Notes under the pieces: generated by a model
Seen by the model: only the letters and a program-made list of their open reading frames with translations
What the model was told of the DNA's origin: nothing
The model's database searches: none
Shown here: positions 25,889-30,311 of the stretch, piece by piece
Layout: each line of letters opens with the position of its first letter
Position numbering within the stretch: position 1 is the first letter of the stretch
Position numbers and translations under genes: made by a program
Assembly (NCBI GenBank): GCA_951406725.2
Contig: OX597834.1
Span: 11,346,001-11,410,000, forward strand
Length of the DNA: 64,000 bases
Origin: Octopus vulgaris
Taxonomy: Eukaryota
Reading direction: 5' to 3'

Positions 25889-26290
25889 GGCGGCGAACCG
25901 GCAGAATCGTTAGCACACCGGGTGAAAAGCTTAGCGGTATTTCGTCTGTCATTACGTTCTGAGATCAAATTCCACGGAGGTCGACTTTGTCTTTCATCCT
26001 CTTGGGATCGATTAAATAAGTACCAGTTACGCACTGGGGTCGATAAAATCGACTTAATTCGTTTGTCTGTCCTTGTTTGTCCCCTCTGTGTGCACCCCCT
26101 TGTGGGCAGTAAAGTGATAGGTATTTCGTCTGTATTTGCGTTCTGAGTTCAAAATTCGCCGAGGTTCAAATTTTCCTTTTCATCCTTTCGGAGTCGATAA
26201 ATTAAGTACCAGTTATGCACTAGGGTCGATGTAATCGACTAGCTCCTTTCCCCGTAAAATTTACAAGGCTTTGTGCCTAGACTAGAAATA
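25889..26290 (+). mobile_element. SINE family 1 dimer
   Basis: Full unit followed by a second unit restarting at GGTATTTCGTCTG. Confidence 0.85.
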
Positions 26291-27075: not shown

Positions 27076-27545
<470 letters not shown>

Positions 27546-28040
27546 ATTTTATTATAGTTAAATTATATAATCTTCATCCTTCTGAGTACAAATAAAAAAA
27601 TATTTCTATACCCATTACTTTACAATCAAAAATTTTTATATTATAATTAACTTAATCATCTTAAACTATTTAAAAATTTACTATATAAGATTTTTCCGTA
27701 CTTTCTGATCCTACATGATGTATCAGTCAATTTACATTCAACTCCGAAACTTGTTTACATTTTCCGTAGCAAAATATAGATTAAATCCAACGATTCTTGC
27801 CAACAGGAAATTCGTTAGATCCCAAGTACAATGTTTGTTTTTAGAGCTAAGTTAGGATCCCTATTTTAGCAGACACTCGGTTATTACGGTTTTACTTCAT
27901 CGCTATAACACCTTTGTAATAATGAAATGTTTAGAATATCTCTGACATAGGTCTGCCTTATTAGCGACGACTTCGGGTTACATGATAAAGTGTCATGTTA
28001 AAAATAATCCCGTTTCAAAGATCACATATAAATGAGTTCA

Positions 28041-28215
28041 CAGTTCTATATTTAAAAGATGAGGAATTTCGTACATTGTTTACAATTGACGGATATTTGT
28101 CCTCATCTTGCTTGTTGTTAAAACAACATTTCGGCTGATATACCCGCCAACCTATATCAGGTGTTTTGGGGGAAATTTAGAACCTGGGTTCTCATTCCTA
28201 AGGTATTTTTGATGA

Positions 28216-28246
<31 letters not shown>

Positions 28247-28571
28247 ATTATTATCATCATTATCATTCAGGTCACTGCCTGAAATCGAACTCGGAATCTT
28301 GGAGTTAGTAGACCGAGCTTTTAATCGCTACGCCATATGCCCGGGTATATTGCGTAGTGGTTAAGAGCGCGGGCTACTAATCCCAAGTTTCCGAATTCAA
28401 TTCCAGGCAGTGACCTGAATAATAATAATATCAAAAATACCTTAGGAATGAGAACCCAGGTTCAAAATTTCCCCCAAGGCACAGGATGAAGGCTGGCGGG
28501 TATACCAGCCGAAACGTTGTGTCAACAACAAAGATGAGGAGGATAAATATCCGTCAATTGTAAATAATGTA
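28041..28571. mobile_element. Palindromic tRNA-headed, hammerhead-tailed retroelement (Penelope-like, non-autonomous)
   Basis: Arms 28072-28342 and 28343-28571 are imperfect reverse complements centred on CCC|GGG. Each arm reads outward: tRNA-like head, (AAT/AAC)n, conserved body, hammerhead-like motif. Confidence 0.75.
28478..28523 (+). ncRNA. Degenerate minimal type I hammerhead ribozyme (right arm)
   Basis: GGCAC-[AG]GATGA-A-GGCTGG(cgggtata)CCAGCC-GAAA-CG-TT-GTGTC; core CT is replaced by AG. The left arm retains CTGAT on the minus strand (about 28118-28165). Confidence 0.6.
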
Positions 28572-28905
28572 AATTAGTTCATTTTTCTTATTCATCTCAG
28601 GAAAATCATGAAATATGTATCGGTATATTTTGGAGTAATACAATCGTTTATTAACCGTCTGTATTTCAATAAAAAAAAAGTCGTTCGCGACATAATTTGA
28701 ACTTAGAGCGTGAAGTTATTACATACGACATTCTACCGCTTTTGCCATCAACCAAGCATGTGAGAGAAAAGCCCCCTTTGCACTAATGTGACGAATACCA
28801 CATAGTTACCCCTAATATACTCATAGACGACGCTGACTCTGACGTCATTGAAACTCAGAAGTAAGGCATTTGTTCTTCGATCTGTCTATACAGTTAACCC
28901 ACTTA

Positions 28906-29309
28906 GGCAGCGAGCTGGCAGACACGTTAGCGCATCGGGCGAAATGCTTAGCGGTATTTCGTCTGTCGTTACGTTCGGAGTTCAAATTCCGCCGAGGTCG
29001 ACTTCGCCTTTCATCCTTTCGGGGTCGATAAATAAAGTACCAGTTTCGCACTGGGGTCGATGTAACCGACTTAATCCCTTTGTCTGTCCTTGTTTGTCCC
29101 CTCTGTGTTTAGCCCCTTGTGGGTAATAAAGAAATAGGTATTTCGTCTGTCGTTACTTTCGGAGTTCAAATTCCGCCGAGGTCGACTTCGCCTTTCATCC
29201 TTTCGGGGTCGATAAATAAAGTACCAGTTACGCACTGGGGTCGATGTAATCGACTTAATACCTATGTCTGTCCCCTCTATGTTTAGCCCCTTGTGGGTTA
29301 TAAAGAAAT
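28906..29309 (+). mobile_element. SINE family 1 dimer
   Basis: Two units; CAGTTAACC on both flanks. Confidence 0.9.
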
Positions 29310-29919
29310 ATATTCAGTTAACCTATTGACCCTCCCGTCGACTTCTTCACTAAATACGCTAAGAAGAATGTTGTTGCGTTTACTGTTTGTAATTTTGTTT
29401 AATGAAATCGGTTCCATTTACCCCGATCCCACCTCTGATTCCTGTCTTAATTTTGATCATTTGTGCAGAAAATCAAAATGTAACATCTTTGAAGAGGGAT
29501 CACGTTTCGTTGTTACTCTCATATGAACTTGTGCTGGACAACAACTTCAACAAAAGGTACGAGAAAACGTTCCGGTCAACAAATATGAATTTAATTCTAA
29601 TTCCCTGATATTAGGCTGTGTTAACAACAAACAAGATGAGGATAAATATCCGTCAATTGTAAATAATGTAAATGAGTTCATTTTTCTTATTCATCTCAAG
29701 AAAATCATGAAATATGTATCGGTATATTTTGGAGTGATACAATCGTTTATTAACCGTCAGTATTTCAAGCATTGAGAGAAAAAAAAAGAAGTCGTTCGCA
29801 TAGAAGTAGGACAGAAAACAAACATGTGTATCATGACCTAGGTGTGGATAACCTTGGTATTGAGGCCTACCCGATCCAGGAGGTCAGCATGAGAAGTAAA
29901 TGTCATTGAATGATTGACT

Positions 29920-30311
29920 TTACTCGTTTACTTGTTTCAGTCATTTGACTGCGGCCATGCTGGAGCACCGCCTGTAGTCCGGCAAATCGACCCCCAGGAC
30001 TTATTCTTTGTAAGCCAAGTACTGTACTTATTCTATCGGTCTCTGTTGTCGAACCGCTAGGTTACGGGGACGTAAACACACAAGCATCGGTTGTCAAGCG
30101 ATGTTGGGGGGGGGACAAACACAGACACACACACACACATATATACATATATACGACAGGCTTCTTTCAGTTTCTGTCTACCGAATCTACTCACAGGAGT
30201 TTGGTCGGACCGAGGCTATAGTAGAAGACACTTGCCCAAGCTGCCATGCAGTGGGACTGAACCCGAAACCATATGGTTGGTAAGCAATCTACTTACCACA
30301 CGGCCACTCCT
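29920..30311 (-). mobile_element. SINE family 2
   Basis: Reverse complement, full length. Confidence 0.9.

Follow-up and report, generated by a model that had tools for sequence, protein, structure and literature searches.

A decayed palindrome in Octopus vulgaris probably represents an insertion of a Penelope-type retrotransposon whose terminal repeats begin with a tRNA-Arg-derived head

In the pertinent sections of the work cited here, Penelope-like elements (PLEs) are recognized by an inverted, 5′-truncated copy, a one-sided tail of 30–40 nt and palindromes at the junctions (PMC8557442, PMC3846280). For the Poseidon element of Anolis, the tail has been tied to two internal reverse transcription (RT) start sites, both target strands are extended and a dimer is predicted, and the hammerhead ribozyme is dispensable for insertion in vitro (PMC11167929). 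The minimal PLE hammerhead has a short stem I, an extra base after A9, a G10.1-C11.1 pair and an ACGU palindrome replacing stem III, and pairs of the motif lying 100–700 bp apart on opposite strands have already been recorded (PMC4209133). Drosophila virilis Penelope is described as TATA-less, with a LINE-like internal promoter in its regulatory region (PMC2377424). By its published description the nearest design to the one considered below is Schistosoma Sm-alpha; Sm-alpha and Sj-alpha are noncoding tandem repeats released by ribozyme cleavage, with a promoter at the 3′ end of the cleaved monomer (PMC6765202, PMC8490949). Among octopus repeats, OR2 has been classed as a CORE SINE (PMC4758252). 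A pseudo-LTR (pLTR) headed by a tRNA is not described in the literature consulted on Penelope elements, SINEs, hammerheads and Pol III retrotransposons, a body of text consisting mostly of abstracts and exclusive of Dfam, Repbase and SINEBase; consensus libraries, for example those accompanying PMC8557442, may already contain the family.

The window, the whole 64,000-nt stretch of Octopus vulgaris DNA that was analyzed, contains two inverted arms, 28041-28342 on the minus strand and 28343-28570 on the plus strand. The locus is probably a decayed, 5′-truncated insertion of an autonomous Penelope/Poseidon-type retrotransposon, seen as two head-to-head 265-nt terminal repeats whose tRNA-Arg-derived head would likely act as an internal promoter. 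Its features are listed here, with positions along the family unit marked q.

28030-28040, plus strand: left copy of the target-site duplication (TSD), 11 bp, last base common with the end of the left arm
28040-28071, minus strand: Penelope "tail" (q233-265), present in the left arm only, 32-33 nt
28040-28195, minus strand: decayed first codons of the Penelope open reading frame (ORF), left arm; the ATG at 28195-28193 is unit position 110
28120-28165, minus strand: minimal type I hammerhead of the left arm, with lesions at G8 and A9 of the core and a changed stem III palindrome
28210-28266, minus strand: expanded (AAT/AAC/GAT)n microsatellite, left arm, bounds approximate
28267-28342, minus strand: tRNA-Arg-like head of the left arm, with a damaged A box at 28335-28325 and a damaged B box at 28292-28282; z 8.3 to tRNA-Arg(ACG)
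28343-28418, plus strand: tRNA-Arg-like head of the right arm, with a damaged A box at 28350-28360 and a damaged B box at 28393-28403; z 7.9 to tRNA-Arg(ACG)
28418-28431, plus strand: short (AAT)n, right arm
28448-28570, plus strand: decayed first codons of the Penelope ORF, right arm, stopping at the inner end point q232 and lacking the tail
28478-28523, plus strand: minimal type I hammerhead of the right arm, with lesions at C3 and U4 of the core; predicted cut after 28518; stems I and II fold, z -3.9
28571-28581, plus strand: TSD copy on the right, with a single mismatch and with microhomology to the element over its first four bases
29617-29768, plus strand: local duplicate of 28518-28669 (element tip and flank), 95% identical

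The two arms agree at 196/228 aligned bases, confirming the imperfect 500-bp palindrome of the original prediction, and they match the family majority at 240/263 (left) and 210/227 (right) positions. The flanking TSD that had been proposed is likewise real: its 11-bp copies differ at one position, and the local duplicate, which arose after insertion, preserves a perfect copy at 29670-29680. The left arm, in which about 30 extra bp had been noticed, has two extra stretches, the tail and some 39 nt more of microsatellite. A and B boxes do exist in the heads, but the sequences quoted for them were composites of the two arms. No remnant of a PLE ORF was found in the window itself.

Both heads and both lesioned hammerheads are present in the sequence as predicted, the heads being tRNA-derived by their A and B boxes and by alignment to tRNA-Arg. 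The right-arm core reads AGGATGAA at 28483-28490 and the left-arm core CTGATATAG at 28160-28152; from these two differing lesions an ancestral core of CTGATGAA had been deduced, and this is exactly the family majority, in which every core position is 95–99% conserved. The intact 46-nt family hammerhead (unit positions 139-184 in the 265-nt family alignment) has 848 exact copies in the genome, as compared with 0 for a reversed control. The family thus shows a CUGANGA/GAAA core, stems I and II and a palindromic stem III, a combination that neither copy at the locus retains in full. The consensus therefore has the intact core and stems that were anticipated, but not the within-family covariation of the stems; their sequences do vary among related PLEs yet still pair. 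Rfam models, run on the window at gathering threshold and on two further stretches (L020 and L272) at E values up to 10, called no tRNA or hammerhead, so the proposed model-based check of the tail came back negative. Unconstrained cofolding of two intact hammerhead copies did not yield the double-hammerhead fold, and no read ended at the predicted cut site in two ordinary unstranded RNA-seq runs. It had been suggested that two transcripts of the locus could pair as a dimeric ribozyme; because both lesions sit in the CUGAUGA strand, mutual rescue is impossible under the double-hammerhead model as outlined in PMC4209133. Nor do the arms end in the hammerhead, or the ribozyme define their end, since they continue beyond the cleavage position for ~50 nt (right) and 86 nt (left), and arms end near q228-238 or q260-274, with the predicted cut after q179.

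What the arms are becomes clear from their relatives. Searching the 2.8-Gb genome with one arm gave 3335 candidates, 40 of which were scored, and a 265-nt unit was built from the alignment of 30 loci plus the left arm; it is composed of the tRNA-like head, (AAT)n, an ORF start containing the minimal hammerhead, and the tail. At one locus (L060) the unit comes directly after a frame encoding a Penelope RT thumb and a GIY-YIG nuclease, and when the ORF DNA of that locus was used as a query the unit lay directly 3′ of the GIY-YIG end in 26/30 loci (the query locus included). The four loci without it (L082, L086, L087 and L090, on C6, C31 and C7) were considered as a headless sister family and rejected, being duplicates of one 3′-truncated copy. 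Long copies, found by searching with the 5′ part of the ORF, show the unit continuing into the ORF N-terminus. Within the unit, the ATG at position 110 opens a 52-aa frame that traverses hammerhead and tail. Its product can be aligned with the N-terminal end of P0005, an 847-aa PLE protein, at a score of 96, 500 shuffles scoring no higher than 62; none of five other PLE proteins matched the segment.

The rest of the ORF points the same way. A natural stretch of 300 aa has 126 longer relatives, mostly RT-bearing, and is 33% identical (E 7e-48) to an 836-aa Anolis carolinensis protein that we take to be Poseidon-like from its length and motifs, and not from its label. The Zn-finger linker preceding the nuclease is absent, the frame being collinear there with the Anolis protein, unlike Neptune and Nematis elements. 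The majority sequence has 820 stop-free codons over four frame segments; relatives of the ORF carry RVT_1 and some of them GIY-YIG (PF01541), and a Pfam search of three ORF fragments, C-terminal ones among them, found nothing. The entire element, ORF and repeat, is covered by contigs from four runs bearing four different organism labels. As in Penelope and Poseidon, there is a single ORF with RT and C-terminal GIY-YIG, no Zn-finger linker, and a pLTR with ORF start and hammerhead at both ends. Because the unit adjoins the RT/GIY-YIG ORF and encodes its N-terminus, each arm is the pLTR of an autonomous Penelope/Poseidon-type element. The original prediction was therefore right to invoke Penelope, on the strength of a minimal Penelope-type hammerhead and a Penelope-made inversion, and the autonomous element sharing the repeat, for which it advised a search, exists. 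It erred in proposing a stand-alone SINE/retrozyme hybrid, and the "conserved body" that it assigned to the SINE is the ORF start. A SINE is non-autonomous and distinct from its partner except in the 3′ part, and here the whole unit, head included, is found in the coding element; retrozymes are tandem monomers bounded by cleavage, and here the ends lie 50–86 nt past the cut and copies are inverted or single.

Several other elements are found in the vicinity of family members. LINE insertions occur within the (AAT)n of the family pLTR at L069 (minus strand, after the head), L242-L271, L050 and L058, and the LINE family at L069 is very young, with copies ~100% identical among 748 candidates. A second, older PLE family (L172-L201, e.g., G000:C11:58309176-58312583) has a CxxC linker, Neptune-like, and a T-rich 3′ region; at L028 the family studied here is inserted into it. 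The truncated copy shared by L082, L086, L087 and L090 rides inside a larger segment duplicated across several contigs.

The structure of individual insertions was surveyed at 70 loci, the first among the 848 exact copies of the hammerhead; all of them lie on contig C1, and they were picked regardless of head or partner. Two arms were present at 37/70 loci and a single arm at 33/70, and arm lengths and palindrome centres vary from one locus to the next, so the palindrome is not, as had been surmised, the transposing unit. In 29 of the 35 pairs with assignable ends, one arm stops near q260-274 and its partner near q220-244 (P 6e-5 under independence of the arms), while three have two tails and three have none; loose RNA-seq read ends fall at these same two end points. 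An exact TSD of at least 7 nt flanks 23/37 two-armed loci, compared with 11% of 1332 mismatched pairs. In 15/31 pairs of a tailed with an untailed arm, the untailed arm extends more than 10 nt further 5′ than its tailed partner, two of these 15 exceeding it by more than 500 nt and four relying on an arm end set at the microsatellite. Because they reach further 5′, the untailed arms of these 15 pairs are not fold-back copies of the tailed ones, a finding that favours independent priming on both strands over a self-primed fold-back. Variants shared between arms are weakly in excess (17 versus 6.8 over 58 pairs, P 0.02), five of them coming from one doubtful pair.

Within the literature consulted, the head is the unusual feature of this family, the palindrome and the ribozyme being ordinary Penelope features. 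Aligned to tRNA-Arg(ACG) of the same genome it shows 49/76 identities (z 9.3), the best of 10 isotypes among 34 genes sampled. ARAGORN, down to a threshold of 80%, found no tRNA in the window or in the head, and Rfam called none either; the tRNA-detector check that had been recommended thus failed, and the likeness of the head to a tRNA rests on its A and B boxes and on the alignment to the genome's own tRNA-Arg.

Other abundant tRNA-headed SINE-like repeats have several copies in the window, at 26004-26249, 28907-29310, 27091-27534 and 29932-30300; a further SINE head resembling the studied one is carried at L213 and is a possible donor; and at G000:C2:211887736-211907126 matches to the tRNA-Arg(ACG) motif are densely arrayed in tandem, often ~206 nt apart. 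A metagenome contig (L272:2822-3030) holds a distant, perfectly tandem Poseidon-type PLE with a period of 2791 nt, in which a weakly tRNA-Leu(CAG)-like stretch (46/86 identities, score 38, as against 32 or less for 150 random stretches) and AAT repeats lie between the ORF stop and the hammerhead. As a candidate for a second tRNA-headed pLTR it was rejected: chance alone would yield 1.3 occurrences of the relaxed A/B pattern in the 31 relatives screened, and its T4 runs, two in each unit, and its TATA-like motif count against it.

Where the arms stop bears directly on the role of the head. The 70 loci have 61 arms with a head, of which 45 reach the A box; setting aside one that is the head of a different SINE leaves 44, and of these 38 stop within -16 to +13 of the head start and six run on into the ORF. 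Expressed as a rate, stopping is ~0.055 per nt at the head start, 0.006 just inside it and 0.0015 in the ORF. The 5′ head is reached in 3/20 long loci, and all three start there (+4, ~-27 and ~+1). This pile-up is read as the 5′ end of the element RNA. The chief competing explanation, to which we would give a minority share of the probability, sees the head as a passenger captured from a tRNA or SINE, has Pol II transcribe the element from an upstream or overlapping promoter, and ascribes the pile-up to RT stalling or fold-back at a hairpin. Such a hairpin does span the junction between ORF end and head, although its computed energy is not exact, and a stall there could add to the pile-up; palindromes at inverted junctions have been interpreted as self-priming in the relevant portion of PMC3846280; and conservation of the A and B boxes does not exceed that of the remaining head sequence, in a star-like family where this comparison has low power. 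However, many arms begin at -7 to +3 and there abut flanking DNA or an arbitrary position in their partner, with no fold-back, a stall would need to halt ~85% of cDNAs, and the long copies start at the head too.

Further discrimination is offered by the coding strand. Pol III read-through requires a sense strand free of T runs. The majority sense strand has 0 T4 runs in 2612 nt (and 31 runs of four A), and with both repeats included, over 2874 nt, 0 in the sense strand versus 34 in the antisense. Natural copies carry 0.54 T4 per kb, none of them recurrent. As controls, 7 are present in 2895 nt of a young LINE whose T content is equal and 28 in 2378 nt of a T-richer Neptune-type PLE, and 36 related ORF stretches average 1.96 per kb with 4/36 having none, in a comparison that sets a majority sequence against single natural copies. 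Among 31 relatives with 3′ sequence none is T4-free over ORF and 3′ region, a further point against the head as a passenger. The significance of the deficit depends on the null: P is 0.007 for a base shuffle, 0.035 for a synonymous shuffle and 0.075 for an order-1 Markov model, but 0.24 for order 2, where the deficit vanishes in keeping with a passenger head, and it is 0.19 on one frame alone. The absence of T4 is thus suggestive of Pol III transcription and statistically modest, and together with the 5′ pile-up it would be consistent with a Pol III promoter in the head, so far as sequence can speak to this. In two unstranded RNA-seq runs (with another organism label) both strands were matched equally and there was no shared start or end, a pattern that fits passive transcription of embedded copies.

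Under the reading preferred here, that of a Penelope/Poseidon-type insertion with a promoter-bearing head, the element RNA, probably a Pol III product, would start ~0–10 nt upstream of the head. Both target strands would be nicked by the protein, ~10–13 nt apart, and one cDNA would be primed at the tail end (q~265) and the other ~33 nt further in (q~232). Each cDNA would extend to the 5′ end of the RNA, where the two would be joined, probably with help from the short palindrome located where the head begins. Given an internal start of reverse transcription, a full-length RNA primed on its 5′ repeat would yield SINE-sized units, and no separate SINE gene would be needed. The most far-reaching version of this model is an autonomous coding retrotransposon of 2.9 kb, transcribed end to end by Pol III from a captured tRNA-Arg promoter, with a T4-purged coding strand, and spawning its own SINE-sized copies via an RT start inside the 5′ repeat; as a whole this must be regarded as tentative, and we would sooner bet against it than for it.

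A somewhat less probable alternative than the passenger head is that most short copies come from noncoding solo units, a true SINE subfamily made by Pol III and mobilized in trans by the Penelope protein. Short units far outnumber ORF-bearing ones (6/44 arms enter the ORF), pLTRs are reported to suffice for mobilization in trans in the cited part of PMC3846280, and a recurrent +1 frameshift in a C run is found in 16 of ~185 arms, with both window arms carrying +1. Yet no diagnostic unit-only lineage was seen, the head also belongs to the autonomous element, and priming on the 5′ repeat of full-length RNA yields an identical product; moreover, the recurrent indels seen most often are in-frame (+9 in 32 and -3 in 27 of 200 arms), although slippage in 3- and 9-nt repeats would give that anyway. 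Finally, a reading of the palindrome as a MITE or foldback DNA element, fixed as a unit and bounded by long terminal inverted repeats (TIRs), can draw on the long inverted arms and TSD at this locus but is exceedingly improbable, given the 33/70 single-armed loci, the varying arm lengths and centres, the asymmetric ends and variable TSD length where fixed symmetric TIRs and a fixed TSD length would be expected, and an arm that belongs to an RT-coding element.

Should the tentative model hold, this would be a Penelope element becoming its own SINE, and a SINE-like family would have arisen inside an autonomous element. If the head is a working Pol III promoter, a coding, uncapped Pol III RNA of 2.9 kb would raise the question of its translation. 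The Penelope papers, in the sections cited, leave open how inversions form; with its fixed start point this family is well suited to serve as a natural test, and the one-sided tail and non-nested arms favour two-strand priming at two RT start sites.

Set against what is described of Anolis Poseidon PAc (PMC11167929), Adineta Pen2/Pen2a (PMC3846280) and D. virilis Penelope, the family has the same single RT and C-terminal GIY-YIG ORF, the same pLTR including ORF start and hammerhead, and the same inverted, 5′-truncated, head-to-head copy with junction palindrome, one-sided 30–40-nt tail and TSDs of ~8–13 bp. Its end points lie ~120 and 155 nt into the ORF, and the internal RT start of PAc lies 111–118 nt into the ORF (PMC11167929). 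It differs in that the pLTR starts with a tRNA-Arg-derived A/B-box head, where Adineta elements are described with a TATA/Inr-like and Drosophila with a LINE-like internal promoter, in a sense strand without T4 runs, and in an ATG that lies upstream of the hammerhead instead of at stem II. The hammerhead motif itself is no different from the minimal PLE form as outlined in PMC4209133, sharing the short stem I, the base after A9, the G10.1-C11.1 pair and the ACGU palindrome, with U at position 17 and lesions in the copies at the locus. With Sm-alpha and Sj-alpha, by their published descriptions, it shares the joining of a Pol III-type promoter and a type I hammerhead in a short repeat, but its unit belongs to a coding element and has the putative promoter on the 5′ side, its insertions are tailed inverted pairs flanked by a TSD, and no end coincides with the cut site. 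SINEs of tRNA origin such as OR2 have the same tRNA-derived A/B-box head, 5′ ends at the head and thousands of short copies; the octopus family, compared with OK, OR1 and OR2 by description only, differs from them in having no poly(A) or simple-repeat 3′ tail and in a head that is also found in its autonomous partner.
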